A stretch of 25,045 nucleotides of DNA, taken from contig PEAD01000010.1 of NCBI GenBank assembly GCA_002753335.1, forward strand, positions 62,001 to 87,045, written 5' to 3'. The stretch is from Nitrospirae bacterium MYbin3. GTDB lineage: Bacteria; Nitrospirota; Thermodesulfovibrionia; Thermodesulfovibrionales; Dissulfurispiraceae. Both the position numbers and the translations under genes were made by a program. The notes beneath the pieces were generated by a model. The model did no database searches. It was not told the origin of the DNA and saw only the letters and a program-made list of their open reading frames with translations. Shown piece by piece: positions 1 to 19,156 of this stretch (positions are counted from its first letter, which is position 1; every line of letters starts with the position of its first letter).

Positions 1-687
1 GCATTTTACTATCATAGAGAAAAGGTCATCCGGGTGAAGATAATCCCGAACCATATCAGCCCCGTCGGTAATTAGAATTTTATTATTCATGATACAGTCA
101 ATAATGTCCGTGATGAAATAGCCGTCAGCCAGATCCGCAAACCTGCTGAAATACGAAAATATCCTGAGATCAACTATCTTCAGCCCTTTGAACGCCCTGT
201 GCTTTGCTTCCGCATTAAGCCTGACAACAGCATAATAATCTTCCGGAGCGATATTATTAACCCTGATACAATTCAGAGAATCTTCTTCTGCAGGAACAGA
301 ACATTCCCTGCCGTAAACCGCGCCGCTGCTCAAGCTGATATAAAGGGCTCCAGGGCAATTATTATTCAGATACCTTAGAACCATATTGTCATACTCTTCG
401 GTAACCGTAAAATATTTCGTATAATCACCCTGCAGCTTCCTTGCGGTTCCAACCCCAACGCAGTTGATTACCGCATCGTAAGAAGAATCGGCAAAATTAT
501 CGTAGCCTTCGTGAATCTCGCAACCGGTTTCGGATATGCCTATAGAGCGAAGAAAATCACAAACATTACGCTGTGTCCTTGAAAATAAATACAATTTAAA
601 ATCTTTGCTGCTGAGGAAATTATTTATCAGTCCTTTTGCTATATGTGAGGAAGCCCCCAATATTGCTATTTTTATTTTTCCTATCAT
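1..687 (-). CDS. NAD(P)-dependent epimerase/dehydratase/reductase (extended SDR), 3' end runs off the window
   Basis: Not in the ORF track. Manual translation from ATG at 687 is open to position 1: MIGKIKIAILGASSHIAKGL...YDAVINCVG...YISLSSGAVYG...EDYYAVVRLNAEAKHR...DLRIFSYF...VRDYLHPDDL. Shows a Rossmann start, the SSGAVYG motif, a Yxxx(K/R) motif and the RDYLH motif. Confidence 0.88.
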   Translation of the reverse strand, partial: MIGKIKIAILGASSHIAKGLINNFLSSKDFKLYLFSRTQRNVCDFLRSIGISETGCEIHEGYDNFADSSYDAVINCVGVGTARKLQGDYTKYFTVTEEYDNMVLRYLNNNCPGALYISLSSGAVYGRECSVPAEEDSLNCIRVNNIAPEDYYAVVRLNAEAKHRAFKGLKIVDLRIFSYFSRFADLADGYFITDIIDCIMNNKILITDGADMVRDYLHPDDLFSMIVKC

Positions 688-716
688 CAATATTTAAGCC
701 AATCCCATATAAATGG

Positions 717-2034: not shown

Positions 2035-3210
2035 TTAAAAGCATGAATTTAAAATCAACTCAATGTCCTGCGTTGACAATCTAACGAAATTGCCTATAGT
2101 ACCGCTAGGCATAACAGAAACACAATTATTAGCTATATCAGCAAATTCTGTTTTATTGATAAGACCTATCTCCTGAAGTGTTGAAGGCATCCCTATAGCT
2201 TTCAAAAAAAGCTGGAATTTATCTATAGCCACCAATATTGCCTGACTGTTTTCCAGCGCACCTTTTTCTATGTCAAAGACTCTATTGGCAAACTGTAAAA
2301 ATATTTGTTCATTTGTTTTATACACATATTTCATCCAAGCAGGAAAAATAACAGCCAAAATAGCACCATGAGCCACGGCATACCGTGAGCCAATTTCATG
2401 ACTAATCTTGTGACTAGCCCAGTCCTGTTTCCTGCCAAAACCTGCAGTATTATCATGAGCAAGTTTACAGCCCCACATTATTTCCGCGCGTACCTCATAA
2501 TTATCAGGCTCTTTATCGACAAGAAGAGCGTATTTCATTAAGGTTTTAACAAGCCCTTCGCAAATTCTGTCGGAGCAATCTACATATGCAGTATTGGAAA
2601 AATATCTTTCCAATACATGTGTTATAGCATCAACAATCCCACAAAATGTGTGCTGCCGAGGAACCGTAAAAGTAATTTCCGGATTTAACATCGAAAATAC
2701 AGGGTACATAACAGGGCTACCGCAATCATATTTCACCTTAACCCTTTCATTTGTAATAACAGCACCATCGCTAGATTCACTGCCAGATCCTGGAACTGTA
2801 AGAATAGTTCCAATTTTAAGACTCTTTTGTGGGATTTGTTTTTTATTGAAAAAATCAATAAAATCGCCTTCATACGGAACCCCTATTCCAACAGTCTTAG
2901 CAGAATCGATAACACTTCCACCTCCAACAGCCAATATAAAATCAATCTTTTCTTTCCTACAGATATTTATACCTTCATATATCAACCCTGCCTCTGGATT
3001 AGATTTCACCCCGCCAAGTTCAATAAACTCGATTCCTGAAGATTTTAATGAATTTGCAACTTTTTCATACAAACCATATTTTTTAAAACTCTCACCACCA
3101 TAGTGTAGTAATATTTTTTTTGAGTATTTTTTTACTTCTTCGCCAACAGTTAATTCAACACCCCTTCCAAAAAATATAGTAGTAGGATTACGATAAACTC
3201 CACTTAACAT
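2035..3210 (-). CDS. Iron-containing alcohol dehydrogenase (BdhA/YqhD-like)
   Basis: NPTTIFFGRG, AVGGGSVIDSAK, GSGSE, DAITHVLERYFS, HKISHEIG...AHGAILA (Asp/His metal ligands). Confidence 0.92.
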   Translation of the reverse strand: MLSGVYRNPTTIFFGRGVELTVGEEVKKYSKKILLHYGGESFKKYGLYEKVANSLKSSGIEFIELGGVKSNPEAGLIYEGINICRKEKIDFILAVGGGSVIDSAKTVGIGVPYEGDFIDFFNKKQIPQKSLKIGTILTVPGSGSESSDGAVITNERVKVKYDCGSPVMYPVFSMLNPEITFTVPRQHTFCGIVDAITHVLERYFSNTAYVDCSDRICEGLVKTLMKYALLVDKEPDNYEVRAEIMWGCKLAHDNTAGFGRKQDWASHKISHEIGSRYAVAHGAILAVIFPAWMKYVYKTNEQIFLQFANRVFDIEKGALENSQAILVAIDKFQLFLKAIGMPSTLQEIGLINKTEFADIANNCVSVMPSGTIGNFVRLSTQDIELILNSCF

Positions 3211-4497: not shown

Positions 4498-5649
4498 TTA
4501 TTCCTTTGGAACAGTAGCGTAAAGCACTGTTTCCGCTACAAATGAAGTATAATTTCTCAAATAAAAAACATATCCCAGACATAAGCTCTCAAGGTAAAGC
4601 GGTATATCCCATATGTGGTTTGGTGCATGATATACACAAATAGCAAGGTCTGGCTTATTTTCTTTTAAGAGAGCTTCTGCACCTTTTAGCGCCTCTAACT
4701 CGGCCCCTTCCACATCCATTTGAATAAAAGTTGGTTTGCAACCAGGTATTACATGATCCAGAGAAACACACTGAACAACTGAATCGCCTTCATCCGAAAT
4801 TGCACTGTTAACTTTATCACCACATGAAAAACGAAGTTGTGTTTCATGGCTAAAAACTCCACATGGAAATGCCATCACACTTTGTGCTATTTCGCTATGT
4901 TTTGCTGATAGATATTTTGATAACGATCCGAAATTCTCAGAATCAGGTTCGAAACATACTATCAAATCAATCTTGCCATACAAGGCATTTAGCTTTAGCA
5001 CTGTGTCGCCGTTGTAAGCACCACAATTTATAAAACGTGAATATCCTTTGCTTAAATTTATATCTCTCGGGAAATACTGCTCTTCCATTGGACTGATAGA
5101 TATAGCAGTCGGGCTTTTCTTTATATGAGTTTCAACAACGCTAACAAATACGTTAGAACTCAAATTGTCAGAAAAAATGTCTAAGCAAGACAAAATTTTT
5201 TCTTTGTTATCTAAATAGTAATCAAATCCTCTTTCTATAAGCTCGGTTGGCGGATGCAAAAGATGATATTCGTATATATCGCTTGACAATATTATATTTC
5301 TAAACCCCATACTTTTCAGGCATTTGAAAATTTCCTCTTGATATTGTTTTGTTATAACAGTAACAACTACAATGGCATCTATTTTTTCATCTTCTGTCGG
5401 TTGATATTCAAAAGGAGCGCAGCTCGGAACATCCAAATAAAAATCTCCAGATTGGAATTTGCGATCAAGCACTATTTGAGCCTTTAATCCATATCGTCTC
5501 AAAACAAAAGTAAAAAAGCTAACCGCCCCCCCTCCAGCACCATAAACAATTATCTTTTTATCTCTCAGCAAATCTATATAGCTGAAAGAATTATTATGCA
5601 CAGATGGCTGCTTAAACAATTCTATAAGGGCTTCTTTATAGTTAGACAT
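4498..5649 (-). CDS. FkbM-family SAM-dependent methyltransferase with N-terminal Rossmann-like domain
   Basis: FINCGAYNGDT, CFEPD, FIQMDVEGAELEALKGA, PDLAICVYH, FYLRNY; N-terminal IVYGAGGGA. Confidence 0.9.
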   Translation of the reverse strand: MSNYKEALIELFKQPSVHNNSFSYIDLLRDKKIIVYGAGGGAVSFFTFVLRRYGLKAQIVLDRKFQSGDFYLDVPSCAPFEYQPTEDEKIDAIVVVTVITKQYQEEIFKCLKSMGFRNIILSSDIYEYHLLHPPTELIERGFDYYLDNKEKILSCLDIFSDNLSSNVFVSVVETHIKKSPTAISISPMEEQYFPRDINLSKGYSRFINCGAYNGDTVLKLNALYGKIDLIVCFEPDSENFGSLSKYLSAKHSEIAQSVMAFPCGVFSHETQLRFSCGDKVNSAISDEGDSVVQCVSLDHVIPGCKPTFIQMDVEGAELEALKGAEALLKENKPDLAICVYHAPNHIWDIPLYLESLCLGYVFYLRNYTSFVAETVLYATVPKE

Positions 5650-5684: not shown

Positions 5685-6704
5685 TCAATATGTATAAAAC
5701 TTTTTAAGCCGCTCAGCGTCATTGTTCAGTACGTCCTCAGGAAACAGCCTGTATTTGATGATATTGCAGTTTTCACATGTCCCGCCCACATTTTTTGCGC
5801 CATCAAGCATAGTACGCCTGAACTCCTGGAACTTCGGACCGATCCATATTTTATGCACAGGCTCTTCATTGCAGTCCCCCATAATTTCAGGGTATTCGAA
5901 AGAATAGCACGGAACAACTTTGCCATCCGGATTTATCTGCATCGTAAAGAAGGGCTGCGGACAGATATGGACTTCCGACACCGGCAGACCGAACTGGGTA
6001 ACCTCTTGATCCCGATTCACTGACAGCCGTTCATAATCTACGCCTGCATGAATGGGAACAGCATGTTCGATAGCTATCGTGTCACAAATGTCGCCAAAAA
6101 TATCAAAAAATTTCTGCTCATCAGCATTGCCCTCCAGCGCGCAATCAACAATTTTAATATAAACCTGAGCGCTGCCCTTGTTGTCATAAAAATACCGCAG
6201 ATTCTCGACAAGCATCTCGAACTCCACCTTAGAGGAGCAGATTTCGAGATATTTCTCCGCTGATGTGCCCTGCAGCGATACAACCAGCCTGGAGAGTCCT
6301 GCCGCAATAAGGTCCTTAGACAACTGCGGAGTCAAAAGCGAAGCATTAGTTAAAATCTCGACTGTTTTCGCCGTATCTTTTGAAACAGCATATTCGATCA
6401 TGGCCGCTATGTCTTTGTGGAGCAGCGGCTCGCCTATGCCGACAAAGCGCAGCACTTTCAATTTTTCGGAAAACATCGCAATTTCGTCCATACACTTTTT
6501 ATAAAGGCCGAAATCCATATTTACCCTGTCTGAAATAAAATGCCTCTTTGCCTTATCGACCGAGAAAATACAATAGCTGCATTTAAAATTGCAGGCATAT
6601 ACAGGGAATATCTGCAGAACAAATGGTGCTGCCAGGGGTAGAACCTCGGCAAGCCTTGTTCTATTGCCGCCCGGCGCCTGTCCGCTGATGACTCTTGCTT
6701 TCAT
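5685..6704 (-). CDS. Radical SAM/SPASM(Twitch) domain protein
   Basis: CNFKCSYC; GIGEPLLH; CPQPFFTMQINPDGKVVPC...CENC. Confidence 0.92.
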   Translation of the reverse strand: MKARVISGQAPGGNRTRLAEVLPLAAPFVLQIFPVYACNFKCSYCIFSVDKAKRHFISDRVNMDFGLYKKCMDEIAMFSEKLKVLRFVGIGEPLLHKDIAAMIEYAVSKDTAKTVEILTNASLLTPQLSKDLIAAGLSRLVVSLQGTSAEKYLEICSSKVEFEMLVENLRYFYDNKGSAQVYIKIVDCALEGNADEQKFFDIFGDICDTIAIEHAVPIHAGVDYERLSVNRDQEVTQFGLPVSEVHICPQPFFTMQINPDGKVVPCYSFEYPEIMGDCNEEPVHKIWIGPKFQEFRRTMLDGAKNVGGTCENCNIIKYRLFPEDVLNNDAERLKKFYTY

Positions 6705-6738: not shown

Positions 6739-7239
6739 TTATATAAACGCCCTGTATATTTCGTGATATTTAATCAGATTTGAGGGACAATGATCATGCC
6801 ACCTAAGATATCCCGCATCTTCGGGAGAAAGCCCTTTATTTTCGGGAACAAATCGGGATGGAACAAAGCACTTATACAAAACAGATATGAAATGCCCCCT
6901 CAGATCACGGTCTTTATTTATGAGCTGGTTCAGGGCTATTGGAGCGGGATCAAATTCAAAAGAAATATCGCTTCCTATTTCGGTCTCTGCCACTTTTCTT
7001 ATCCGCTCCTCAAACGTCTCCTTAAACCTGACTATTCCTCCCGGCACATGCCATCCGGTGCCGGAATACCGGTCATCCCGCCAAGCCAGAAGCGTCCGTC
7101 CATTTTCATCTTTTATTAAAAGATCGACATTCACAAGAGGTGTTGTCCGGCTGATGTAATAAAACAGATCGTCAGGCAATCCCACGGCGGGATTAGGTAC
7201 AAGTTTGTCTAAGGCAGCTATAGCATTGGAGATTTCCAT
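6739..7239 (-). CDS. NUDIX hydrolase, GDP-mannose mannosyl hydrolase (Gmm/WcaH)-like
   Basis: TPLVNVDLLIKDENGRTLLAWR and a modified Nudix box WHVPGGIVRFKETFEERIRKVAETEIG, resembling Gmm. GGAG RBS upstream. Confidence 0.8.
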   Translation of the reverse strand: MEISNAIAALDKLVPNPAVGLPDDLFYYISRTTPLVNVDLLIKDENGRTLLAWRDDRYSGTGWHVPGGIVRFKETFEERIRKVAETEIGSDISFEFDPAPIALNQLINKDRDLRGHFISVLYKCFVPSRFVPENKGLSPEDAGYLRWHDHCPSNLIKYHEIYRAFI

Positions 7240-7251
7240 GGTTCTCCCGGT

Positions 7252-8373
7252 TTATTTCTTAAACAGCCTGGCGTCTTCATTAAAAGGCCTCCGCGTTCTA
7301 TCCTCGTCCGCAAAAACCTCGGAACACGACACAGGAAGAGGCTTGCCATAAATCTTTTTAGCCACATAATTATTTATAAAATCCCTGTCCTCCGCAATAA
7401 TGCAGGTATCTACATATTCCCCGAAATGCTTAATGCCAAGCCCTCTATCAACAATGTCTTTCAAAGGCTCCTCAAAAACATTTCCGATAGAAGTATGAAT
7501 ATAGGGACAGGGCAGAACATCTCCGTACTGCGTTACCGAAAACATCCCCTTGACAGATATGCAGCCCATATTGAGGCCATAGGCCGAAGTTAAGTGGGTA
7601 AATACTTTATATTTTTTTTCGAGTTCCTCCATATACCTCATATCTCCCTTATCCACCAAAACATCGAAATTCCCCTCCCATGCGCCGACAGGCTTTGCGT
7701 ATGTTACAAATACCCCTATGCCCATATTATTAAAATGTTCGATAAACTTGATAAATTCATCCGTATAAAGCCGCTGTTTAGTAACAACAGTTTGCATAAA
7801 AATACCTAAGCCTGCTTTTAAGGCTATATCGACCGATTTCATGGCCCTCTCGTAAGCGCCCTTTACGCCCCTGAACCGGTCATGTTCTTCGGGATTAAAA
7901 CTATCTAAGCTCAATTGAACTCTGTCAACGCCTATGCCCTTTATATGAACAGCCTTCTTCTCATCCAAAAGCCAGCCGTTGGTATCGCAGTTAATATAAA
8001 ACTTCTGAGGATCGATAGCTGCCACCAAATCATCGAAATCTTTGAAGGTTAACGGCTCCCCGCCGGTAATAGTCACGCGCGCAAGCCCCATTTCGTCAGC
8101 CTGCCTGAAAAGCTCTCTGACATCCGCTATGGCAAATGACCGTTTGTTAGTCTTGCCCTGAAATCTTTTGACCGAGCAATGTTCACATGTAAAATTGCAT
8201 GAGTAATTATACTGAAACTGAATAATAGCGATGCTTTCGCCGCGCCTAAGCTTTTCGTCGAATTTCATAACCTTTTCGTAAACGTAAGGCTTCTCCCGCA
8301 TAAGAATGCTTCTTCTATCGGTCTCTTCCTTTGACCTAGGGCTTTGAAATGGCATGTTAGTATTCTCCTTCAT
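7252..8373 (-). CDS. Radical SAM/SPASM(Twitch) domain protein
   Basis: CNFTCEHC; ITGGEPL; DTNG; QLSLDS...HDRFRG; GC...SVTQYGDVLPCPY...IGNV. Start may be the second Met (MPFQ), which has AGGAG upstream. Confidence 0.92.
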   Translation of the reverse strand: MKENTNMPFQSPRSKEETDRRSILMREKPYVYEKVMKFDEKLRRGESIAIIQFQYNYSCNFTCEHCSVKRFQGKTNKRSFAIADVRELFRQADEMGLARVTITGGEPLTFKDFDDLVAAIDPQKFYINCDTNGWLLDEKKAVHIKGIGVDRVQLSLDSFNPEEHDRFRGVKGAYERAMKSVDIALKAGLGIFMQTVVTKQRLYTDEFIKFIEHFNNMGIGVFVTYAKPVGAWEGNFDVLVDKGDMRYMEELEKKYKVFTHLTSAYGLNMGCISVKGMFSVTQYGDVLPCPYIHTSIGNVFEEPLKDIVDRGLGIKHFGEYVDTCIIAEDRDFINNYVAKKIYGKPLPVSCSEVFADEDRTRRPFNEDARLFKK

Positions 8374-8385
8374 TAATATTCTACG

Positions 8386-9606
8386 CTACGCAACCACATA
8401 CCTGGGATAAGCTAAAGGCCTGTCCACCTGCACTGCAGGAGTTACCTCTTTACCCGACAACGGCCTACCATTGCAATAATCGCATACCTCCAGATATTCC
8501 TTATTCAAAAGATAATTTTTTACAGCATCTTTTATAGTTCCTACATTTACCCCGTCGAGAACCCTGCTATAAATATCAACGTAATCAATCTTGCAGTCGG
8601 GGACCGCGAACAACCTGTTAGCGTTGGCCCCATACGGGCATCTGAAAAGCTTTCCGTCAGACAGAGTAGCCATATTCTTGGCGCAACAGTTCCTGAATAT
8701 TTCCCTATTCCCCTCTGCACCGCGTTTATGGGGTGCTATTTGAGCGCAATCAAGCCATTCAGCCGGTTTCAATATATGATAAGCAATTTTATGTTCTTCA
8801 AGTATATCTCTTAATTCATGCAGTTTTCTGGATAAAACACCGTAGTCCGTTATAATAACCGCCACCTTGGTATTTTTAAAATGAGCAATATCCGCAAGCT
8901 TCGGCACAATAGTGCCGTTTGTATATAAAAGAACCCGTTTTGCCTTTGGCTCCGTGGTAAGTCTTTCTACAATTACAGGCCACTCTTTATTCATAAAAGC
9001 GTCACCGCCGATAATACGGAAATCCATCACCTCATCGACCACCAAACAAAACGCATCTATAGACTTCAACAACATATCCAAATCGGAGTCCCTCGGCTTC
9101 TCGTAATACTGCATAAGGTTGGAGCAATCCTTGCATCTTAAAGAGCAGCGTTCGGTAATAATAATATCTATGCTCCTTAAAAAAAGTTTTTCAGGATGCA
9201 GATAGCCGTCATGACACAATATGCAGTTCTCTATCGCAAACTTCGTGTAATCTATGGCTGAGCCCGGATTGGCGCAAGAAAAATCAATGTCCCTTAATAA
9301 CAAACCTCCAGCATGCCAGTGGTAAAAACCGATGCCCTCGAGGAGATCAACAACATCCTTTATGGCGGCGACGGATATTAAAATAACCGCATCTTTATGT
9401 CTTTCCCTCAATCCCGGAGTAGGGATTACCTCCTTCCCGCAAAATTCAGAACCTGCAATCTTCATGCTGCTGTCGCAAAAACAATCGACTTCTATGCCTG
9501 CATCTTTACAGACAGACAACAAAACCCCGCCCACAATGCCTGCCCCGGCTATCACCACAGGCAGATCCCCGGCTTTGATTTCTTTTATGACATTTTCTTT
9601 TAACAT
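8386..9606 (-). CDS. Radical SAM enzyme with N-terminal Rossmann-like domain
   Basis: CSLRCKDC; IIGGDAF; YTNGT; C-terminal CC...DGKLFRCP...CDYC; N-terminal VIAGAGIVG...CFCDS. Confidence 0.88.
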   Translation of the reverse strand: MLKENVIKEIKAGDLPVVIAGAGIVGGVLLSVCKDAGIEVDCFCDSSMKIAGSEFCGKEVIPTPGLRERHKDAVILISVAAIKDVVDLLEGIGFYHWHAGGLLLRDIDFSCANPGSAIDYTKFAIENCILCHDGYLHPEKLFLRSIDIIITERCSLRCKDCSNLMQYYEKPRDSDLDMLLKSIDAFCLVVDEVMDFRIIGGDAFMNKEWPVIVERLTTEPKAKRVLLYTNGTIVPKLADIAHFKNTKVAVIITDYGVLSRKLHELRDILEEHKIAYHILKPAEWLDCAQIAPHKRGAEGNREIFRNCCAKNMATLSDGKLFRCPYGANANRLFAVPDCKIDYVDIYSRVLDGVNVGTIKDAVKNYLLNKEYLEVCDYCNGRPLSGKEVTPAVQVDRPLAYPRYVVA

Positions 9607-10692
9607 CTATTCGCCTTTACTCCCGCCGTATCTTTTATATGCCTTGAGTCTGCAGACCAGTATTATTAAAGCTGTTAATTTCAGTCTTATCAAAAGGGGC
9701 AGCACTATGCTGTTGCCTTTAGATGGGGAATAATGACTCAGGCAATCCCTCAAAAGAGCGGAATTTACTAGTTTGTCTATCTCTTCATAAATTCTTCTCC
9801 TGTTCTGTTTTGCAAGACTCCTGCAGGAGCGGACCATAAAAATAATCACGTAATGTACAAGTGCATGACCTATCTCTTTTTCGGCAGATATGCAGGACAA
9901 ACCCGCATGTTGACCAAAAAACTCAGCCGTATTCATTCTGAATACATTCATGTCATGCAATAGACTTTCACTGTTAACTATAGCCATGCTCGCAGACAAA
10001 TGGCTGTTGTGCATAGCATAAACATACAGCGCCTTGTTAACAAAAATTATTTTATCCGTATGCTTTAAATATTCGAGATTAAAAACAAAATCCTCAAACA
10101 GGCGCATTGATTCGTCAGCAACGAGGCCTTTGTCCTTAATAACCGACGCCTTGTATAACCTTCCCCAGCAGTAGCTAATCAGATGGTTGCTGGGATGTTT
10201 CAGAAAGTGGCTCACGTACGACATTATATCTGTTTTGTATAACACTTTTTTTTCATCTTCAAACGGTCCGGCCTCGGGATGAAAGGCAACGCTTTGTTTT
10301 ATTACCGCTCCGTTGTTTTCGATCTTCCTGAAATTAGCCATGACCATGTCAGGCTGGTGTTCGTAATAATTCGCAATCAATATCTCTATGGCTTCATCAT
10401 CAATAAAATCATCCGCATCCAAAAAAAATATGAAGTCTCCCGACGCACAGCGCACTCCTGTATTCCTTGCAGCAGCAGGCCCGCGGTTGTCTTGTGCTAT
10501 TACATAAACCCTTTTATCAGAAAGAGCATATTTATTGCACAGCGTTTCGCTGCGGTCAGTTGACCCGTCATTAACGAGTATAAGCTGTATATTGGTATAA
10601 CTCTGCCTTAGGACACTTCCGATAGACCTGTCCAAAAAGTCCTCTGCATTATATACGGGCATAACGATACTTACTAAAACCTGCGGCATCAT
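9607..10692 (-). CDS. Glycosyltransferase family 2
   Basis: VSIVMPVYNAE, ILVNDGSTD, GPAAARNTG, FLDADD (DxD), FEDFVFN. Start uncertain: ATG at 10692 or 10689, or TTG at 10707; ORF open to 10728. Confidence 0.92.
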   Translation of the reverse strand: MMPQVLVSIVMPVYNAEDFLDRSIGSVLRQSYTNIQLILVNDGSTDRSETLCNKYALSDKRVYVIAQDNRGPAAARNTGVRCASGDFIFFLDADDFIDDEAIEILIANYYEHQPDMVMANFRKIENNGAVIKQSVAFHPEAGPFEDEKKVLYKTDIMSYVSHFLKHPSNHLISYCWGRLYKASVIKDKGLVADESMRLFEDFVFNLEYLKHTDKIIFVNKALYVYAMHNSHLSASMAIVNSESLLHDMNVFRMNTAEFFGQHAGLSCISAEKEIGHALVHYVIIFMVRSCRSLAKQNRRRIYEEIDKLVNSALLRDCLSHYSPSKGNSIVLPLLIRLKLTALIILVCRLKAYKRYGGSKGE

Positions 10693-10711
10693 CTCGGAGC
10701 GTTCCAATTTG

Positions 10712-11203
10712 TCACCCGAGGCCTGCAAGTTTATTTAAGATTCCGTCGCATATCTCCGACGGGGGAGCATCTATCTTCATCGTAATTGCATTAACAGGAG
10801 GCTCTAACGCCTCAAACTGACTCTCCAACAAAGGTTCCTGAAAAAAATGTTCCCTTCTCGCTTTCATTCTCGCCGAAATAAAACTTTTATCGCCTTCAAG
10901 GTATATAAAAACTACTTTTGCATTCCCGTCGCCCGATAGCATCCGGCGGTATTCCTCTTTCAATGCAGAACAGGCAATAACAGCACCGCGACCTTTATTC
11001 CAGTCCCTTATATTTCGGGCTAAATTCAAAAGCCAAGGCATTCTGTCTTCATCCTTAAGCGGTATGGAATTTTTCATTTTATCGAGACTGCTTAGTGAAT
11101 GAAAATCATCGGCATCATAAAAATCAATATCAAGTCTGTCAGATAGCATCTTTCCTACAGTAGTCTTGCCCGAACCCGAAACCCCCATAACTACATATAC
11201 CAT
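10712..11203 (-). CDS. Gluconokinase (GntK/IdnK family) carbohydrate kinase
   Basis: MGVSGSGKTTVG P-loop, DADDFH, PLKDEDRMPWL, ACSALKEEYR, LLESQFEALEPP. Confidence 0.9.
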   Translation of the reverse strand: MVYVVMGVSGSGKTTVGKMLSDRLDIDFYDADDFHSLSSLDKMKNSIPLKDEDRMPWLLNLARNIRDWNKGRGAVIACSALKEEYRRMLSGDGNAKVVFIYLEGDKSFISARMKARREHFFQEPLLESQFEALEPPVNAITMKIDAPPSEICDGILNKLAGLG

Positions 11204-11227
11204 ATCCGTACCGGTTCTGCAGAAAGC

Positions 11228-13015
11228 CTACGCCATATTTTTCTTAAACTCTTCCCTGTCGAGAAAAGGCCACAGGTCTTCCATAGGCATCGACTCCATA
11301 GAGCCGTCTTCCCTCTGCCTCGATGAAACCCGCGGAGCAGTACCCTGCTCCGGAGACACCATAACCTCGCAGATAACCGGTCCATCAATTTCGAGTATGT
11401 CACGAACCTTCTCTCTGATTCCGGAGTTGTTTTCGAGCCTAACCGGGGTTATGCCAAAGGCCTTTGCCACTGCGATTATATCGGGGAGTGTGAGACCGCT
11501 CGACCTTGTACTGGCAACATAATTTCCGCCGAAATAGTTGCGCTGGGTGGTCTGGATCGAAACATACCCACCGTTGTTCAGGATAAAGAATTTAATCGGC
11601 AGCCCCAGTCTTTTAACAGTCTCCAGATCCTGTATATTCATGGCAAAGCCGCCGTCACCCTCTATGCAGACAGTCCGCTTCATTCCGGCTGCGACACATC
11701 CGCCTATAGCGGCAGGAACGCCGAACCCCATAGAACCGAGCCCCTGACTGTTTAAAATCCTCATCCCTGACTTGACCCTTATCGCCTGCATAGTGCGTTC
11801 ACTGCAGGCACCTGAACTGCCGGGTATCACCAAGTCATCGCCGGATAATTCATCCGAAAGAGCATCTATAAGCAGATAATCGTTAACAAAGCCTCTGTCC
11901 TCAAAGTATTCCGGCAGTACAACCGGATACCTCTCCTGCCATTCCTTGCATCTATTAAGCCATGCCAGCCTGTCTTTATTCTCTATAATCGAAAAATGCT
12001 TGATAATCTCTCGTAGAAAGTCTCCGGCATCAGCTTTTACAGGAATATCTATCTTCATCTGCAGTTTATTTATCTCGGCAGCATCTATGTCCACAATAAT
12101 CTTAAAAGCGTTTTTGGCGAAATGTCCATGACTGTATGCTGTCTGGCCAAAATCCAGACGCGCCCCGACAACCAGCAGCCAGTCCGCATTCTGCTGCGTG
12201 AAGTTGGCGCCGCGTTGTCCTATGGCCCCGGGCCTGCCTGCATACAGAGGATGGTCGTCCGTAATAATATCTGCAGCCTTCCATGTGGTCAACAAAGGAA
12301 CCCCGAGCCGTTCAACAACACGATAAAAGTCAGCCGTCGCTTTCGACAGCCTTATACCGTTGCCGGCAAGGATCACAGGACGCTCAGCTTTGTTCAACGC
12401 TTCAAGTGCGTGAACAACATCTCTCGCAAGGTTTTCGATGCCTGATGAACGCTGTTCTTCAGCAATTTCGAATCCTTCAAGGTTGTCCTCATCTACCATC
12501 GCTGCCTGAACATCAAGAGGTATATCTATCCAGACCGGACCGGGCCGGCCATGTCTGGCCAGATATACTGCTTTTTCGAGATGGTAGCGTATCGCTGCCG
12601 GCTCCAACACTGTTGCCGCATATTTAGTGATCGAACAGACAAGACCTACTATATCTATCTCCTGAAACCCCATCTGCCGTACACCGCGGTCTCCAGAGAG
12701 GTCCTGCCGCTTTACCTGCCCCGAAATTATAATAACCGGAATAGAGTCGAGCCATGATGCGGCAACCCCTGTAATGGTGTTTGTTCCGCCGGGCCCTGTT
12801 GTCACAAGGGCCGCTCCGATATTATTAGTATATTGGCTGTATGCATCTGCAGCGATAGCTGCGGCCTGTTCGTGCAGCATGCAGATGTATGATAGCTTTG
12901 CATTCCTACCTGCAGAATCGACGAGATGCATGGCCCCGCCGCCCGGAAGCATGAAAATATGTTTTACGCCAAGGTTTGCGATGTAATCAACCACATAATC
13001 CGAAAGCTTAATCAC
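11228..13015 (-). CDS. Thiamine diphosphate-dependent enzyme (acetolactate synthase-like, YerE-type in this context)
   Basis: HEQAAAIAADAY, VTTGPGGTN, GRPGPVWIDIPLDVQ, GSMGFGVPAAIG and the ThDP-binding motif GDGGFAMN...LNNGGY. GTG start overlaps the upstream TGA stop (GTGA). Confidence 0.92.
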   Translation of the reverse strand: MIKLSDYVVDYIANLGVKHIFMLPGGGAMHLVDSAGRNAKLSYICMLHEQAAAIAADAYSQYTNNIGAALVTTGPGGTNTITGVAASWLDSIPVIIISGQVKRQDLSGDRGVRQMGFQEIDIVGLVCSITKYAATVLEPAAIRYHLEKAVYLARHGRPGPVWIDIPLDVQAAMVDEDNLEGFEIAEEQRSSGIENLARDVVHALEALNKAERPVILAGNGIRLSKATADFYRVVERLGVPLLTTWKAADIITDDHPLYAGRPGAIGQRGANFTQQNADWLLVVGARLDFGQTAYSHGHFAKNAFKIIVDIDAAEINKLQMKIDIPVKADAGDFLREIIKHFSIIENKDRLAWLNRCKEWQERYPVVLPEYFEDRGFVNDYLLIDALSDELSGDDLVIPGSSGACSERTMQAIRVKSGMRILNSQGLGSMGFGVPAAIGGCVAAGMKRTVCIEGDGGFAMNIQDLETVKRLGLPIKFFILNNGGYVSIQTTQRNYFGGNYVASTRSSGLTLPDIIAVAKAFGITPVRLENNSGIREKVRDILEIDGPVICEVMVSPEQGTAPRVSSRQREDGSMESMPMEDLWPFLDREEFKKNMA

Positions 13016-13602
13016 TCTTTGCTCCTTCCATCCAAAAGCAATGTTAAAGCCTCGGCAGTTTTCAGACTCGAACTATTCCAGGGTCTCGGCCAAAGAATGT
13101 TTCTTATGCCCAAGCCTTCAGTAGCATTAATATTTACCGGACTGTCATCGACAAAAATATCAACCTTAGAAATCCATTTCAAAAAAGCGGATTTATCGCT
13201 GTCATAGTCCGGGATAGACTGCCCCTCTCTTTTAGAGGGAACAAAATGAAAAGTCCTTATCCATCTGCCGAAATTCTTCAAAACCCATTGAGCTGAAGCT
13301 GAAGCCGCAAGCAGCGGGACCGCCGTAAGCGCGATGTGCCGAAAATTATTGCCGTATTTCAAAAACCATTCCATAACTTCATCCGTCGGCTTCATTCGCT
13401 GATACATGGAAGAAAGACGATACTCGTCCAGAGAGTTCAAATAGTCGCCAAGCTGAACACCCAACAGCATATGAGGCGGGTTCTCATTAATCTGCCCGTA
13501 TCTTAATTTGCATCCGTTATGCTCCCTTGTCCATTTCTGCTCAAACCAGTCATGCATCAAGTTGTTGAGCACATCGTCAACGTCCCATGCTATCGTCTTC
13601 AT
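13012..13602 (-). CDS. HAD-superfamily phosphatase, 5'(3')-nucleotidase NT5C-like
   Basis: Motif I IAWDVDDVL, motif II ALTA, motif III/IV K...IFVDDSPVN, and RPWN. Confidence 0.8.
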   Translation of the reverse strand: MKTIAWDVDDVLNNLMHDWFEQKWTREHNGCKLRYGQINENPPHMLLGVQLGDYLNSLDEYRLSSMYQRMKPTDEVMEWFLKYGNNFRHIALTAVPLLAASASAQWVLKNFGRWIRTFHFVPSKREGQSIPDYDSDKSAFLKWISKVDIFVDDSPVNINATEGLGIRNILWPRPWNSSSLKTAEALTLLLDGRSKE

Positions 13603-13608
13603 CCTGTT

Positions 13609-15138
13609 TTACGAAACCGGCTTAAGCAGCCAGTCCGACCAAAAGGTAAGGGCGGTTTTCCTGTTTTTATTGTTTATCACATCGAGGTCATCATAAAAAG
13701 AGTCGTCATTATAGTGGGTGGTGGATATCTCCTCGAATATCGTTCCCCCGGCAGAACTGAAGCTATGCTTTTTATCTCTTTCAACTATCACCATCTCGCC
13801 CGCCTTGCAGCGCCTCTCTTCTCCATCGAGGCTAACCGCCATATCGCCGTACAGCACATGAAAGGTTTCTTCCTTCTTCTTGTGGCGGTGCACAGGATGC
13901 TTCTGTCCGGGCAACAATATTATCAGCTTCTTGCAGTATTCCCGGTTGATGCAGTTAATAATCGTCGCCCCCCACTCTTCGAACCTGTCCAGCCCATAAT
14001 GATGAGATATTTCCATCTCGAGTTTGTCGGGCAGCACAACTCTGCTCTCGATAAGCAAGCAACTTATTTTTTTAACAATTACCAGGACCTTATCTCTTAA
14101 ATTTGTAATATTTATATCGGCAATAAATACAGGCTGATCAGCATTTATGTCCTTATCCGCAACAAACTCAGAATATTTCGACATCTGGTTTGAAACCATC
14201 TGTCCCTCAAGATTAGGGATGGCAAAAAAGGTATTAAAGGCGTCAACTCTTTCTCCCTTTTTAATATTCATCTTTGAAAAAACGCCCCTCTGCAACCCTC
14301 TTAAATCACTCATCTCTTTTTCTGTCCCCTCAAATCTTGTTTCAGAAATGCCGCACATGGCTAATGCTTCTTGTGCCGACTTAAGCCATGCGTCAATATT
14401 CTCCGGAGTTGAAGAATAGGCATTGATCGCATATTTATCAGTTTTTACCGCCACATGCCGCTCAAAAACCGATGCGCCTTTGCCTATAGCGATTTTTACC
14501 GCTTCGTAATTATCTGGAGACTCGTGGGTCGAATAGCCTACAGACACCTCCGGATATCTCTTTCTTAACAGGTCTATCTGGTTTAGCTGCATATTTTTTT
14601 TATCCGTCGGATATTCGCCTACACAATGCATCAGGCAAAAATCTTTATCCCTATGTTCAAAAAATGATACGACCTTATCTATGTCTTCCAATTCAGCTCC
14701 CGCTGTGGAGGCAATCAAAGGTTTCGAGGTTTTCACGATCCTCTCGAGCAGCGGCCAGTCTGTAAATGAACAGCTCGCTATCTTGATAATGTCATAGCCG
14801 TGCTTTTCTATAAGATCTACAGACCTCTCGTCAAATGGCGTACACATAGTTATAAATCCAAGCCTTTCAGCTTCATTCTTTAATTCAATAAACTGCTCTG
14901 CAGACAACTTCGTCTCGATAAAACGCTTCACATATTTAAAGTCTGTACTGTTCTTGAAATCCGGGTGAATGAAGGTATCTATATCCCTGTACTGAAATTT
15001 AAATGCAAACTTAAACGGGAACCTCTTGCAAACATTATGCATCTCTCTGATGATATTAAGGCCATGCACGACATCTCCCATATGATTATTAGCCATCTCA
15101 AAGATAAAAAGCCCGTTAAAATGTTCGCTGTTTTTCAT
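13609..15138 (-). CDS. NeuB-family PEP-dependent 2-keto-3-deoxy acid (ulosonate) synthase fused to SAF and C-terminal cupin domains
   Basis: FEMANNHMG, FKFQ, TPFD, KIAS, LMHCVGEYPT, GYSTHE, ERH; SAF RGVFSKMNIKKGE; cupin CKKLIILLPGQKHPVHRHKKKEETF...HSF...EEIST. ATG at 15138 overlaps the rfbH stop (TAATG) with AGGA upstream. Confidence 0.88.
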   Translation of the reverse strand: MKNSEHFNGLFIFEMANNHMGDVVHGLNIIREMHNVCKRFPFKFAFKFQYRDIDTFIHPDFKNSTDFKYVKRFIETKLSAEQFIELKNEAERLGFITMCTPFDERSVDLIEKHGYDIIKIASCSFTDWPLLERIVKTSKPLIASTAGAELEDIDKVVSFFEHRDKDFCLMHCVGEYPTDKKNMQLNQIDLLRKRYPEVSVGYSTHESPDNYEAVKIAIGKGASVFERHVAVKTDKYAINAYSSTPENIDAWLKSAQEALAMCGISETRFEGTEKEMSDLRGLQRGVFSKMNIKKGERVDAFNTFFAIPNLEGQMVSNQMSKYSEFVADKDINADQPVFIADINITNLRDKVLVIVKKISCLLIESRVVLPDKLEMEISHHYGLDRFEEWGATIINCINREYCKKLIILLPGQKHPVHRHKKKEETFHVLYGDMAVSLDGEERRCKAGEMVIVERDKKHSFSSAGGTIFEEISTTHYNDDSFYDDLDVINNKNRKTALTFWSDWLLKPVS

Positions 15139-16490
15139 TATCCTTTCCTGTTGCCGCAAAATGCCCTTATTTCTTCCGCCATAAAATCAATCATTGCATC
15201 ACCGATTCCCGGATAGACGCCGATCCAGAAGGCATTTTCTGTGACACTATCGGTATTCCTGAGGTCTCCCACAATCCTGTAGCCTTTGCCTGTTCTCCTC
15301 ATTTCATCAAAGCAGGGATGTCTTACGATATTTCCTGCAAAGAGCATCCTTGTCTGTATTCCTCTATCTTCAAGGTGATTTACAATCTCATCCCTTGTAA
15401 ATCCGGCGTCTTCTCTCAGCGTAAGCATAAAACCGAACCAACTGGGGTCGGTACCTGCAGTCGCCTCGGGCAAAATGAACCTGTCCGACAGACCCGCCAA
15501 ACCATCCCTTAAGAGCTTCCAGTTCTTTTTCCTTGCCTTTATAAAATCAGGCAGCTTCTCGAGTTGAGCGCATCCTATTGCGGCCTGCATTTCTGTGGCT
15601 TTTAGATTATAGCCAAAATGGGAGTAAACATATTTATGGTCATACCCAAAAGGCAGTTCTCCAAGCTGTTGTTTAAAGCGTTTTTTACATGTATTATCAT
15701 GACCGGAACTACACCGGCAGTCTCTTCCCCAATCCCTCAATGATTGGATTATTATCCCAAGATCCACGCTATCTGTATATACCGCCCCACCTTCGCCCAT
15801 AGTTATATGATGCGGGGGATAAAAACTTGAGGTGCCCAAATGGCCGGCAGTGCCCGTAAACCTCCATTCACCGTTGTCCAAGTACCTTGAACCGAGGGCA
15901 TCGCAGTTGTCCTCTATCAGCCATAGATTATACTTATCGCAAAAGTTTTTTACCGTCTTTATATCGAAAGGATTGCCGAGTGTATGGGCAACCATAAGCG
16001 CCCTTGTTTTATCCGACAAGGCTGATTCCAATTGATCACAATCTATGTTATACGCCGGCAATGTTATATCCACAAAGACAGGCTCAGCACCGTATTGAAT
16101 GATAGGCGCAATAGTTGTTGGAAAACCGGCAGCAACGGTTATAATTTCATCACCTTTATTGATCCTTTTCTCTCCAAGCTTATACGAAGTAAGCGCCGCA
16201 AATGCAAGGAAATTGGCCGACGAACCAGAATTTACCAGCAAACTGTATTTGACCCCCAGAAACTCTGCAAATGTCTTTTCGAATTGCTCTGCATAATCCC
16301 CTGATGTGAGCCAGAAAGCGAGCGATGCATCTATAAGGTTAAGTATCTCTTTTTCATCAAAAACCCGGCCTGCATACTTAATCCTCGACTTGCCGGGAAT
16401 AAAAGGGGCATTTAGGGCAGTTTTGTGCACTTCTTCATAATATGTCTTTGCATTCAAAACAATTTCTTCTTTGAGTTTATCGGCAATCAT
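15138..16490 (-). CDS. rfbH: CDP-4-keto-6-deoxy-D-glucose 3-dehydratase (E1, RfbH/DdhC)
   Basis: VNSGSSAN, AHTLGNPF, IEDNCDALGS, SFYPPHHITMGEGG (His at the aminotransferase Lys position), Cys cluster DWGRDCRC..GHDNTC, YDHKYVYSHFGYNLK. Confidence 0.95.
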   Translation of the reverse strand: MIADKLKEEIVLNAKTYYEEVHKTALNAPFIPGKSRIKYAGRVFDEKEILNLIDASLAFWLTSGDYAEQFEKTFAEFLGVKYSLLVNSGSSANFLAFAALTSYKLGEKRINKGDEIITVAAGFPTTIAPIIQYGAEPVFVDITLPAYNIDCDQLESALSDKTRALMVAHTLGNPFDIKTVKNFCDKYNLWLIEDNCDALGSRYLDNGEWRFTGTAGHLGTSSFYPPHHITMGEGGAVYTDSVDLGIIIQSLRDWGRDCRCSSGHDNTCKKRFKQQLGELPFGYDHKYVYSHFGYNLKATEMQAAIGCAQLEKLPDFIKARKKNWKLLRDGLAGLSDRFILPEATAGTDPSWFGFMLTLREDAGFTRDEIVNHLEDRGIQTRMLFAGNIVRHPCFDEMRRTGKGYRIVGDLRNTDSVTENAFWIGVYPGIGDAMIDFMAEEIRAFCGNRKG

Positions 16491-17562
16491 ATATAGGTTC
16501 CATATCCCGCATATAGGATTTTATGTTGTCTTTGCTTGACACTGATTTGTGCTCATAAAATTCCTTATACCATCCAACCGTCATTGATATCGCTTTTTTT
16601 ATCCCCCAAACCGGCTTCCAGCCAAGCCTTGTGTATGCCTTGGAGCAATCCAGTTTTAGCAAACTTGTTTCATGAAACTCGGCAGCATTTTTTGAAGCTT
16701 CGTATTTCACCTTATTCCATTCCAAAGCAACCTTTTCTACAACACTTTCTACATCTATACTCCCTTCATCATAGGGGCCAAAATTCCATGCCCCGGCAAA
16801 TTCTTTTTTCCCTTCAAACAGTCTTTGCGCCAGCATCATATACCCTGAAAGAGGTTCAAGGACATGCTGCCACGGCCTCGTTGACCTTGGACTCCTGATG
16901 ATTACAGTTTCATTTTTATTGGCCGATTTCATAATGTCTGGTATCAGTCTGTCAACAGCCCAGTCGCCCCCGCCAATTACGTTTCCTGCCCGAGTGCTCG
17001 CTAAAAGAACTTTATGGGACTTGCCGTATTCATCCAAATTAAAATAAGAAACCCTGTATGAATTTGTTATAAGTTCTGCGCAGGCCTTAGATACGCTGTA
17101 GGGATCATGTCCACCAAGCTCGTCAGTCTCTCTGTATCCGCAGACCCATCCTTTATTCTCATAGCATTTATCGCTCGTTATATTTACTATTGCTCTAACA
17201 TCTCCGGTAAAGCGACATGCCTCGAAAATATTTATTGTGCCCATAATGTTGGTCTCAAGGGTTTCTACCGGATTATTGTAGGAATACCTCACTATAGGCT
17301 GTGCTGCCAGATGAAAAATTATTTCGGGCTTATGTTCCTTGAAAACAGAAATCAGCTTATCCTTGTCTCTGGTATCGCCGACAATTGATGTAATATCCAT
17401 TTGCAGCAATGCATAATGGTTGGGGATTGTCGGAGGCTCTTTGGAATAGCCTACAACATTCGCTCCAAGCTCTTTAAGCCATAAACAAAGCCATGAGCCC
17501 TTAAAGCCGGTGTGGCCGGTAACTATGACATTTTTGTCTTTCCAAAAGTTTTTATCGATCAT
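16477..17562 (-). CDS. rfbG: CDP-glucose 4,6-dehydratase
   Basis: FWKDKNVIVTGHTGFKGSWL, HLAAQPIVRYSY, TSDKCYEN, DPYSVSK, RAGNVIGGGDWA, RPWQHVLEPLSGY. ATG at 17562 has GGAG upstream; ORF open to 17577. Confidence 0.96.
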   Translation of the reverse strand: MIDKNFWKDKNVIVTGHTGFKGSWLCLWLKELGANVVGYSKEPPTIPNHYALLQMDITSIVGDTRDKDKLISVFKEHKPEIIFHLAAQPIVRYSYNNPVETLETNIMGTINIFEACRFTGDVRAIVNITSDKCYENKGWVCGYRETDELGGHDPYSVSKACAELITNSYRVSYFNLDEYGKSHKVLLASTRAGNVIGGGDWAVDRLIPDIMKSANKNETVIIRSPRSTRPWQHVLEPLSGYMMLAQRLFEGKKEFAGAWNFGPYDEGSIDVESVVEKVALEWNKVKYEASKNAAEFHETSLLKLDCSKAYTRLGWKPVWGIKKAISMTVGWYKEFYEHKSVSSKDNIKSYMRDMEPIYDCR

Positions 17563-17599: not shown

Positions 17600-19156
17600 T
17601 TAAGTTCTCACAGAATTGTATACGACTCTTCTTAATGTCTTCAACTCCAGACCTGTCTTCTTTAAAACCGCATCGAATATTTCGATATCGTCGCGCTCAA
17701 AGCTTCCGGTATAAAGAAGCGCGGCAAAATATCCGCTGATGTATGCCGTTAAATAAAATGGCATCATCCAGAAATAAAGAGGCAGGCTCTTTGCAACCAA
17801 ATAAACGACCACCCCGACCAATACGGCCGCTATAATAGGCTTTATGTACTGGATCGTAAACGGATGTGTCCGGCTGGTCCTATACAGCAGCAGCAAAACA
17901 ACAAGGTTTGACGCAATATATGAAATTATCGTTGCAACAGCGGCTCCTGCGCTGCCCATGCCGAAATGCTTTATTAGTATATAGTTGAGGATTATATTTA
18001 ACGCCGCAGCTGCCGCAGAAACCTTCATCAGCATGCCAGGCTTTCCGATCACCAGCATAAGCACCCCGGTAGTTCCCATCATAGCGCTGAACAAAAACCC
18101 GGCAGATAAAATTCGCAGCGACAAGGCAGAATCCGCATAATTCGTACCGAACAAAAAAGATACCGTCATCTCGGGGAAAAAGAACAATACAAAAAATATC
18201 GGGAAGGTGGCCGAAAATAGCCATTTGGTCAAAACCTGATATGTCCTATTTAAATCCTTATGCTCATTCCTCGAATAAAGCTCTCCTGCAATCGGCAAAA
18301 AGGCAAATTCCATCGCATTTATAGGGAAAAGCAATAATTTTGCAAGAGACATGCTTACGTTATAAATGCCCACCTCCTCGGCAGGTTCATATCTTCCGAG
18401 TATCAAGGTATCGCCCCATAACATAATGATTCCGAGCATATTAAGTATAAGCAGATTAACGGCAAATTTTATAAAATCCCTTCCGGTTTCTGTATTAATA
18501 TCAGCATCGACAACAGTCTGATGGACTCTTCTGAAATAATAAATCCCGATTAAGAGCGCAGCCAGGATCATTGCTCCGGTAAAAGCCCAGACAATGTTCA
18601 GAAGGGAGAATTTTAGAAAAACAAATGACAACAAAAAAACAAGAAATACAAGCGGTTGGCCTATATCGAGAAGCAGCACTTTAGGATAAATAATATTATA
18701 GCCCCTTAAGATACCGATGAAGATATTAGCCATGACAGATGAAAAAACAAACAAGGATATTATTACCAAAAACGAAGCTATATCGGGTTTGTAAAATATG
18801 TGTTTTGATATGAGATCCGAAAAAATTATCAAACCAAAAGCCGCAATTATGCCGGACAGCAACCCTGACTTCAGGGCAAACCCCGATATGAACGCAGCTC
18901 TTTTTTTATCATCTTTGCCGAAGCATATGGATATATATCTTGGAACTGCTTCATGTATGCCGAGCAATGCAACGGCAGAAACAAGGCCACCTATCGCTAT
19001 CAAAATAGAATAAACACCGAACTCCTCTTTTGTAAGGTTCCTTACAATAATAAGACGGGTAACAAACCATATCAGAATACTTAAGATTGAACCTATAAAG
19101 ACGAGCGTAGAGCCTTTGATAGCCCTTCTTAATGAAGATTTAACCGTATCGGACAT
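17600..19156 (-). CDS. Oligosaccharide flippase (Wzx/MOP superfamily)
   Basis: 518 aa with about 12-14 hydrophobic segments; motifs LTKEEFGVYS, DTLILG...VGIYN, LNIILNYILI..FG..GAAVAT. Confidence 0.9.
   Translation of the reverse strand: MSDTVKSSLRRAIKGSTLVFIGSILSILIWFVTRLIIVRNLTKEEFGVYSILIAIGGLVSAVALLGIHEAVPRYISICFGKDDKKRAAFISGFALKSGLLSGIIAAFGLIIFSDLISKHIFYKPDIASFLVIISLFVFSSVMANIFIGILRGYNIIYPKVLLLDIGQPLVFLVFLLSFVFLKFSLLNIVWAFTGAMILAALLIGIYYFRRVHQTVVDADINTETGRDFIKFAVNLLILNMLGIIMLWGDTLILGRYEPAEEVGIYNVSMSLAKLLLFPINAMEFAFLPIAGELYSRNEHKDLNRTYQVLTKWLFSATFPIFFVLFFFPEMTVSFLFGTNYADSALSLRILSAGFLFSAMMGTTGVLMLVIGKPGMLMKVSAAAAALNIILNYILIKHFGMGSAGAAVATIISYIASNLVVLLLLYRTSRTHPFTIQYIKPIIAAVLVGVVVYLVAKSLPLYFWMMPFYLTAYISGYFAALLYTGSFERDDIEIFDAVLKKTGLELKTLRRVVYNSVRT

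Follow-up and report, generated by a model that had tools for sequence, protein, structure and literature searches.

The 25,045-nucleotide stretch analysed here (the window; G000:C34:62001-87045, contig PEAD01000010.1, forward strand) lies at the end of an 87-kb contig in the 2.9-Mb, 94% complete genome of Nitrospirae bacterium MYbin3, and the contig ends at its right edge. The minus strand carries six open reading frames (ORFs), each intact, coding for the cytidine diphosphate (CDP)-sugar enzymes RfbG and RfbH, a fusion of a NeuB-type synthase with a cupin domain, a HAD phosphatase, a thiamine diphosphate (ThDP)-dependent enzyme and a kinase (Table 1). The genes are joined by overlaps of 14, 1 and 4 bases and by gaps of 6 and 24 bases, exactly the arrangement of six contiguous genes reported in a preliminary description of this DNA. 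The operon runs unbroken past the kinase through genes coding for a GT2 glycosyltransferase, five radical SAM proteins, a NUDIX hydrolase, an FkbM methyltransferase, an Fe-containing alcohol dehydrogenase (Fe-ADH) and a short-chain dehydrogenase/reductase (SDR).

The NeuB part of the fusion has its best PDB match in 3G8R (E 3e-117), true NeuB structures following at E 1e-19 to 1e-22. This closest solved relative of the synthase domain is an uncharacterised structural-genomics entry with the generic name "probable spore coat polysaccharide biosynthesis protein E"; it comprises the synthase part only, to which the window protein adds the cupin. The fusion scores far under the cut-offs of the NeuB/PseI models TIGR03569 (135 versus 400) and TIGR03586 (126 versus 340). 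Residues of 77 family members and 78 canonical NeuB controls were compared by alignment column in the numbering of the window protein, with the roles in phosphoenolpyruvate (PEP), metal and sugar binding that the accessible part of PMC11339185 gives for NeuB. K47, Q49, T100, K119, S122, S144, Y176, S203, H205 and H228 match the residues named there, and the equivalent of N182 is Gly or Ala in the fusion family. The Arg of the antifreeze-like domain that grips the N-acetyl group, found in 100% of the 78 controls, is replaced by I307 in the window protein and by Ile or Phe in at least 93% of the 77 members. Similarly, the equivalent of Asp247 (Asp in 100% of the 78 controls) is N239, and Asn in 100% of the family. 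Moreover, the fusion family has three new invariant basic residues, R51, K71 and R72, which may form a phosphate site.

D-lyxose isomerases came first in a profile search with the C-terminal cupin (2Y0O, E 7e-15; 7NZO, E 1e-11), and they make up all of the top 10 Foldseek matches of its model (predicted local distance difference test, pLDDT, 94). The pattern of these enzymes (YCxK, H/Q-x-H...K-x-E...H, distal E and D) is present, with conserved residues K403, H417/H419/E424/H458, K422, E470 and D479; among 151 sequences, 54% have His and 46% have Gln as the first metal ligand. The window cupin thus has the fold and the metal and catalytic residues of D-lyxose isomerases, which supports its proposed role as the supplier of an aldose. 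It is about 20% identical to the solved enzymes, a distance at which the substrate is not readable from sequence.

The ThDP enzyme best matches JanthE (8RPH, E 1e-122) and 5AHK (E 5e-86), the latter of which we take to be a YerE orthologue, ahead of acetohydroxyacid synthases (AHAS). An assignment as AHAS is ruled out, since the protein scores under the AHAS cut-off and a separate AHAS is encoded on contig C41. JanthE, its closest solved relative, has a CDG motif where the window enzyme has GDG; it accepts pyruvate, and its physiological substrates are unknown (PMC12188165). The HAD protein has no match in Pfam or NCBIfam. Its AlphaFold model (55 sequences, pLDDT 95) matches HAD phosphatases of the 5'(3')-deoxyribonucleotidase type, in agreement with the earlier suggestion that it sets phosphorylation. 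E1 dehydrases (RfbH/DdhC) are recognised by a His replacing the Lys that binds pyridoxal phosphate (PLP) and by a four-Cys iron-sulfur motif. RfbH of the window has both, with His227 at the usual PLP-Lys position and cysteines C196 and C258-x-C260-x7-C268. No rfbF is present in the cluster; one lies at C50:54717-55514, beside a second rfbG, and its product is 48% identical to a cassette RfbF.

Gene neighbourhoods were surveyed at 144 distinct loci, 78 from the best 80 of 288 matches and 66 from the best 80 of at least 570 matches in species genomes, from which 6 loci already in the first set and 8 repeats of the same contigs had been dropped. Ninety of the 144 are well flanked, with at least 4.5 kb on both sides of neuB. 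Counts come from six-frame searches with a bit-score threshold for each gene, and the NeuA profile, which started from 7 genes of the source genome, was iterated for three rounds. The control set consisted of 80 loci found with a canonical NeuB that the source genome also encodes, 51 of them well flanked. A ThDP gene is present in 89 of the 90 well-flanked loci, and it lies within 1.5 kb of neuB in 60 of 69 loci; the cassette type of ThDP gene was found at 5 of the 80 control loci. At least one of rfbF, rfbG and rfbH occurs in 81 of the 90 loci (rfbF in 74, rfbH in 71 and, at the threshold used, rfbG in 49), a HAD orthologue in 63 and another HAD gene in 9.

NeuA-type genes have the opposite distribution, with 4 of the 90 well-flanked loci versus 41 of the 51 well-flanked controls. 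Over all loci, the iterated profile gave 5 of 144 versus 54 of 80 controls, and one of the five (L091) was dropped as a nucleoside triphosphate (NTP)-transferase, leaving 4 of 144. The same profile detected no such gene in the window itself or over the 20 kb downstream of it (L001). The statement that no NeuA-type cytidine monophosphate (CMP)-transferase lies in the window is thus borne out, and it extends to the next 20 kb. Judged by the lost N-acetyl Arg and by its neighbours, the fusion is, at the level of sequence, not a nonulosonic acid synthase. The neighbourhood comparison for a consistent co-occurrence with neuA, proposed in the preliminary description, likewise gave few cases beside the fusion and many beside the controls, and the near-constant ThDP gene, the rarity of NeuA and a mycobacterial cassette without NeuA (see below) support its idea that the NeuB product is a carboligation donor, not a sialic acid.

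Mycobacterium gastri DSM 43505 codes for a full-length NeuB-cupin (53% identical), directly followed by a ThDP gene whose product is 47-48% identical to the window enzyme, versus 24% for MyGE, the enzyme assigned in print to the branched sugar of this species. The order of the locus is FadD, a 2,100-aa Mas-like polyketide synthase (PKS), a methyltransferase, GtrA, rfbG, rfbH, rfbF, a polyprenol-type GT2, NeuB-cupin, ThDP, HAD, two methyltransferases, SDR and GT87, which parallels the lipooligosaccharide (LOS) locus of M. kansasii as given in the accessible part of PMC4403928; the orthology of the PKS with pks5 is by gene order. It carries the only rfbH of M. gastri. No NeuA was found in the M. 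gastri genome (best PF02348 score 25 bits), and no radical SAM, NUDIX or E3-like gene in the 38 kb examined. The M. gastri glycolipid contains gastriose, a C7-branched 3,6-dideoxy sugar (PMC9306805). A C7 branch implies a C8 keto-acid donor, that is, PEP plus a pentose. The same core genes are present in M. szulgai, M. angelicum and M. rhodesiae. Two O-methyl groups are present on the branch of gastriose, a number that would agree with the two methyltransferases of the M. gastri locus.

In the published mygE locus (L096:9459-13662), a gene for a small cupin precedes mygE, which is followed by genes for an HMGL-like aldolase and an SDR. The flanking genes code for transporter and amidase proteins, sugar-nucleotide genes are absent from the vicinity, and the 20 kb around mygE gave neither rfbF/G/H nor NeuB genes. 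The published MygI is therefore not this NeuB fusion, the gene after mygE being HMGL-like. In addition, no activity of MygE with ketones was seen according to the accessible part of PMC12247030. Judging from gene content, the cassette is a better fit to the branched sugar of M. gastri than the genes assigned to it in print, and the true pathway of mygE-mygI-mygF may be another than that of gastriose. Because the M. gastri stretch holds no radical SAM or NUDIX gene, the product of the window probably differs from gastriose.

In the reading that we consider likely, the product of the cassette is a CDP-linked 3,6-dideoxyhexose that carries a long polyol branch on C4 and is destined for a surface glycan, and the NeuB product serves as donor for the ThDP enzyme. 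From the gene identities, folds, residue patterns and co-occurrence that were observed, we infer every substrate and the order of the steps as follows. RfbF (from C50), RfbG and RfbH would form CDP-4-keto-3,6-dideoxy-D-glucose, as is established for these families, with a borrowed reductase presumably taking the place of E3. The cupin would turn a ketose phosphate of central metabolism into an aldose phosphate, whose likeliest identity is a pentose 5-phosphate of the D-lyxose-isomerase type; to this the NeuB barrel would add PEP, giving a non-acetamido 2-keto-3-deoxy-octonate 8-phosphate. After removal of the phosphate, presumably by the HAD protein, the YerE-like ThDP enzyme would decarboxylate the acid and transfer the resulting C7 acyl unit to the C4 position of the CDP-keto sugar, by a chemistry that is in print for ErwE. 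An SDR would reduce the branch ketone to a gastriose-type skeleton, the radical SAM, methyltransferase and NUDIX proteins would tailor or edit the sugar, and a GT2 would transfer it; the gluconokinase and Fe-ADH are local add-ons.

Several observations, given here with the alternatives that they touch, weigh against this reading. It is unlikely that two separate products are made, namely a free ulosonic acid (like 2-keto-3-deoxynonulosonic acid, KDN, or 3-deoxy-D-manno-octulosonic acid, Kdo) from NeuB-cupin and HAD, CMP-activated by an enzyme encoded elsewhere, and ordinary yersiniose from the ThDP enzyme with pyruvate, the substrate that its nearest solved relative JanthE takes. At L068 (Desulfatibacillum), a cytidylyltransferase gene (12066-12935) separates the HAD gene from the ThDP gene, taking the place that a WcbI-family gene occupies at other loci; at L031, L066 and L215, a cytidylyltransferase gene lies 3 to 9 kb from the cassette, and the well-flanked L095 has no ThDP gene. 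Moreover, seven strong NeuA/KdsB-family (PF02348) genes are present on other contigs of the source genome, and CMP activation in trans may thus be possible. However, strong PF02348 genes and the other NeuB genes share contigs (C50, C7 and C21), where they lie a few kb apart, and a full-scoring KdsA is already present in the genome. The excess of NeuA genes at the control loci, the ThDP gene accompanying almost every fusion gene and the M. gastri cassette in a genome without NeuA also speak against two products. The source genome has three other ulosonate-type clusters (G000:C50:15000-56000, C21:177000-186000 and C7:30000-41000) with five more NeuB-family genes; C50 codes for a 613-aa NeuB-cytidylyltransferase fusion, and these clusters also include the second rfbFG pair.

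Viruses carry both kinds of neighbourhood. The 24 viral loci comprise 14 of the main group, 8 of a sister group and 2 fragments. All 14 main-group loci have a ThDP gene and none has NeuA, whereas the sister group (L265-L272, matches at about 8000-9500) has a NeuA-type gene in 8 of 8 loci and a ThDP gene in 0 of 8. The eight sister fusions, two of them near-identical, are about 40% identical to the main group, keep its active-site residues and form one side of a branch with a support of 99 in a quick tree of 37 rows. Taken together, the two groups suggest that a genuine ulosonic acid is the product of the fusion, its fate being set by the neighbouring gene. As the acid can evidently be CMP-activated, the sister group also leaves the two-product alternative viable in principle, and an unknown CMP-activated ulosonic acid is a probable product of its virus-encoded glycosylation clusters. 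The fusion had zero matches in a plasmid collection (E 1e-40) and in a phage collection (E 1e-30). It is carried by only 3 of 40 relatives of the source genome, as expected for a mobile glycan cassette.

A different wiring of the same genes, also improbable, would let the acceptor keep its C3 hydroxyl as CDP-4-keto-6-deoxyglucose because E3 is missing, or have the HAD protein act after ligation of a phosphorylated donor, or place radical SAM chemistry before branching. An E3-like gene was found in only 4 of the 90 loci, leaving 86 without such a reductase, with a weak match only in the source genome; no phosphatase was found in 18 of the 90, and nucleotides are substrates of NT5C-like HAD proteins. 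Sugars that are C4-branched and C3-hydroxylated are known from M. marinum and R. palustris according to the accessible part of PMC9912281. However, RfbH, present in most loci, retains the E1-type His/Cys motif, and the sugar of M. gastri is 3,6-dideoxy even though the 38 kb examined there hold no E3-like gene. A third alternative, a plain decarboxylase turning the ulosonate into a 2-deoxy aldose that the kinase and others would activate, without a C4 branch, is very improbable, as the kinase that directly follows the ThDP gene in the window recurs at hardly any other locus, rfbF/G/H genes accompany the fusion, and the best structural relatives of the ThDP enzyme are YerE-like carboligases.

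Three further points limit the reading in which the NeuB product is grafted by the ThDP enzyme. The fusion proteins of the window and of M. gastri are identical at 70 of 75 family-conserved positions, but these were picked for conservation, and the identity leaves the aldose open, a hexose phosphate (giving a KDN-type C9 acid and a C8 branch) being possible. The strain of the solved sugar may differ from the sequenced M. gastri strain. Finally, the 144 loci, which span many phyla including archaea, are the nearest relatives of the query and include many kin, so that the counts overstate independence. We lean slightly towards a broader proposal, in which NeuB-cupin would be an uncharacterised bifunctional isomerase/synthase that uses a ketose phosphate and PEP to form a 3-deoxy-octulosonate other than Kdo. 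Within the family, one branch, in hundreds of species of bacteria, archaea and viruses, would feed ThDP side-chain grafting and another a CMP transferase; the first route, not MyGE/MygI/MygF, would be the true gastriose pathway, and the window version, with its five radical SAM genes, would lead to a further-modified sugar not yet isolated.

Table 1. Features of the window, with positions counted from its first nucleotide; locus counts refer to the 90 well-flanked loci.
Feature	Position	Strand	Evidence and remarks
rfbG, CDP-glucose 4,6-dehydratase, core	16477..17562	-	ATG start, upstream TTG at 17577 possible; TIGR02622 487 bits versus cut-off 278
rfbH/ddhC, E1-type CDP-4-keto-6-deoxyglucose 3-dehydrase, core	15138..16490	-	NF011936 716 bits versus cut-off 423
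neuB-cupin fusion, whole ORF, 509 aa	13609..15138	-	NeuB and Cupin_2/Lyx_isomer domains
NeuB-type barrel and antifreeze-like domain (residues 1-344 of P0001), core; predicted PEP + aldose-phosphate 2-keto-3-deoxy acid synthase	14107..15138	-	PF03102
C-terminal cupin of the fusion, D-lyxose ketol-isomerase-like, core	13609..14106	-	Profile search and model
HAD phosphatase, NT5C-like fold, motif DVDD, 196 aa; core but replaceable	13012..13602	-	Predicted structure
YerE-like ThDP carboligase, 595 aa, core	11228..13015	-	Three TPP_enzyme domains
GntK-type gluconokinase; local accessory, outside the conserved module	10712..11203	-	TIGR01313 (GntK/IdnK) 152 versus cut-off 114
GT2 glycosyltransferase, candidate transferase of the sugar	9607..10728	-	PF00535; 14/90 loci, 12 of those with the radical SAM gene 8386..9606
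Radical SAM protein, accessory tailoring	8386..9606	-	PF04055; 12/90 loci
Radical SAM/SPASM protein, commonest cassette accessory	7252..8373	-	56/90 loci; median identity 63% in the first locus set
NUDIX hydrolase, GDP-mannose mannosyl hydrolase-like, common accessory	6739..7239	-	53/90 loci, 44 of those with the radical SAM gene 7252..8373
Radical SAM/SPASM protein, accessory	5685..6704	-	23/90 loci
FkbM-family methyltransferase, candidate for O-methylation	4498..5649	-	PF05050, TIGR01444; 7/90 loci
Fe-ADH, not conserved	2035..3210	-	
Atypical extended SDR, possible ketoreductase	1..690	-	PF01370; extends past the window edge, about 317 aa; full frame C34:61737-62693
Wzx/MOP-type flippase, upstream of rfbG	17600..19156	-	PF01943, PF13440

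The remaining genes of the operon are less constant. The kinase, previously taken as a core part, was found in 1 of the 90 well-flanked loci and in 2 of all 144, which rules it out as part of the module. A search of the 94% complete genome gave no 6-phosphogluconate dehydrogenase, so that a gluconate-to-pentose feed is unsupported. Fe-ADH was one of two proposed ketone reductases and is likewise ruled out (1 of 90 and 1 of 144 loci). The other, the SDR at 1-690, is a possible but weak candidate, being present in only 21 of the 90 loci and having Arg where the YxxxK motif has Lys; it tracks a radical SAM gene, which 17 of these 21 loci also hold. A gene for one or another of three SDR types occurs in 72 of the 90 loci, and the atypical window type aligns with neither of the other two at E 0.01. 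The first gene list was correct for the six genes and left out the most common accessories, radical SAM/SPASM (7252-8373) and NUDIX (6739-7239), which occur together in 44 of the 90 loci and are both missing in 25. A PDB search with this radical SAM protein gave distant matches only (MoaA, SkfB and BlsE). A gene for a zinc-binding C-methyltransferase-like protein (Methyltransf_13/23/14), present in 42 of the 90 loci (for example L032:7190-8206), is missing from the source genome.

Some other features of the region may be mentioned. Radical SAM genes are dense, with five in the window (717-9606) and at least three more radical-SAM-like ORFs downstream (L001:12594-18305); those at 717-2003 and 3226-4497 are paralogues. 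Several share a similar N-terminal stretch, which is also found on FkbM methyltransferases and on an SDR. The [G + C] content is 40-50% in the core cassette versus 35-38% below position 6000, which suggests that the downstream tailoring genes have another origin than the core cassette. At 21973-25039 lie genes for two paralogous multi-pass membrane proteins with C-terminal tetratricopeptide (TPR) repeats, which we take to be TMTC-like protein O-glycosyltransferases, and a polyprenol-phosphate glycosyltransferase is encoded nearby (19172-19876); the sugar of the cluster may be attached to proteins. The repeats seen in the window amount to no more than matches between paralogues or chance ones.

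If the proposal is true, a large family now labelled "N-acetylneuraminate synthase" would receive a function and would no longer be a sign of sialic-acid mimicry. This family counts 7,150 proteins at E 1e-50 among 8,000 scored, which may include other NeuB relatives, besides the matches in species genomes given above. The scheme for acyl-branched sugars would also gain a PEP-dependent donor route and a ThDP enzyme taking a C8 polyol keto acid. In addition, the assignment for gastriose would receive a testable correction: no activity of MyGE with ketones was seen (accessible part of PMC12247030), and a better candidate is found in the LOS-type locus of a species that can be cultured and whose sugar has been solved. 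Two things temper the interest: the branching chemistry is in print, and no name can be given to the product of this uncultured organism.

Steitz et al. 2022 (PMC9306805) proposed for erwiniose, caryophyllose and gastriose that 4-hydroxy-2-oxo acids of aldol origin are added to CDP-4-keto-3,6-dideoxyglucose in a ThDP-dependent reaction, and demonstrated the addition with ErwE on a model ketone. The systems covered are those of erwiniose (ErwE/F/I/J), caryophyllose (MMAR_2331/2332), gastriose (MyGE/MygI/MygF) and the R. palustris sugar, and the donor-making enzymes are pyruvate aldolases, BphI-like for ErwI and of the aldolase/citrate-lyase family for MMAR_2331. The view of the cluster as an undescribed pathway therefore does not hold for the whole, branching with long gamma-hydroxy keto-acid donors having been published and tested in 2022. 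According to the accessible part of PMC12247030, an in-silico study lists YerE-like enzymes numbering over 200, and YerE takes pyruvate or 2-oxobutyrate only as donors. In the open-access literature, where "gastriose" occurs in 2 papers only, we found nothing tying a NeuB-type enzyme to the acyl-branched sugar scheme, and "cupin" has zero occurrences in the accessible part of the large NeuB phylogeny PMC8208679. The grafting chemistry is thus known, and the NeuB-cupin supply route appears to be unpublished.

The Steitz clusters and the window share the genes for CDP-4-keto-3,6-dideoxyglucose (rfbF being on C50 here), a YerE-like ThDP enzyme and an SDR, and both pair the ThDP enzyme with an aldol-forming maker of a 4-hydroxy-2-oxo acid donor. 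The maker is a pyruvate aldolase in the former, whereas the window has a NeuB fold that depends on PEP and is fused to a ketol-isomerase, together with a phosphatase, and no pyruvate aldolase of the BphI/HMGL or HpcH/citrate-lyase type among the 22 window proteins scanned. Moreover, radical SAM and NUDIX accessories are present in the window and absent from the published scheme. The yersiniose pathway (YerE/YerF, DdhA-D) shares the rfbFGH core and YerE-like branching, but it has no donor-making enzyme, and it includes an E3 reductase that most cassette loci lack.

With NeuB, LegI and PseI the window synthase shares the TIM barrel and antifreeze-like domain, the PEP and metal residues and a HAD neighbour, from which it differs by the lost N-acetyl Arg, an Asn for Asp247 and the extra isomerase domain. 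The KDN-9-phosphate route consists of a synthase, a HAD phosphatase and a CMP transferase, and the last of these is absent from 140 of the 144 loci related to the window fusion. A replacement Kdo route is ruled out for the fusion by the genome's own KdsA. In the Kdo pathway, the isomerase KdsD makes the aldose phosphate, KdsA adds PEP and KdsC removes the phosphate. The cassette has the same logic of isomerase, PEP-dependent synthase and phosphatase; the folds of isomerase and synthase differ, however, and in the proposed pathway the acid would be decarboxylated and grafted instead of being CMP-activated.

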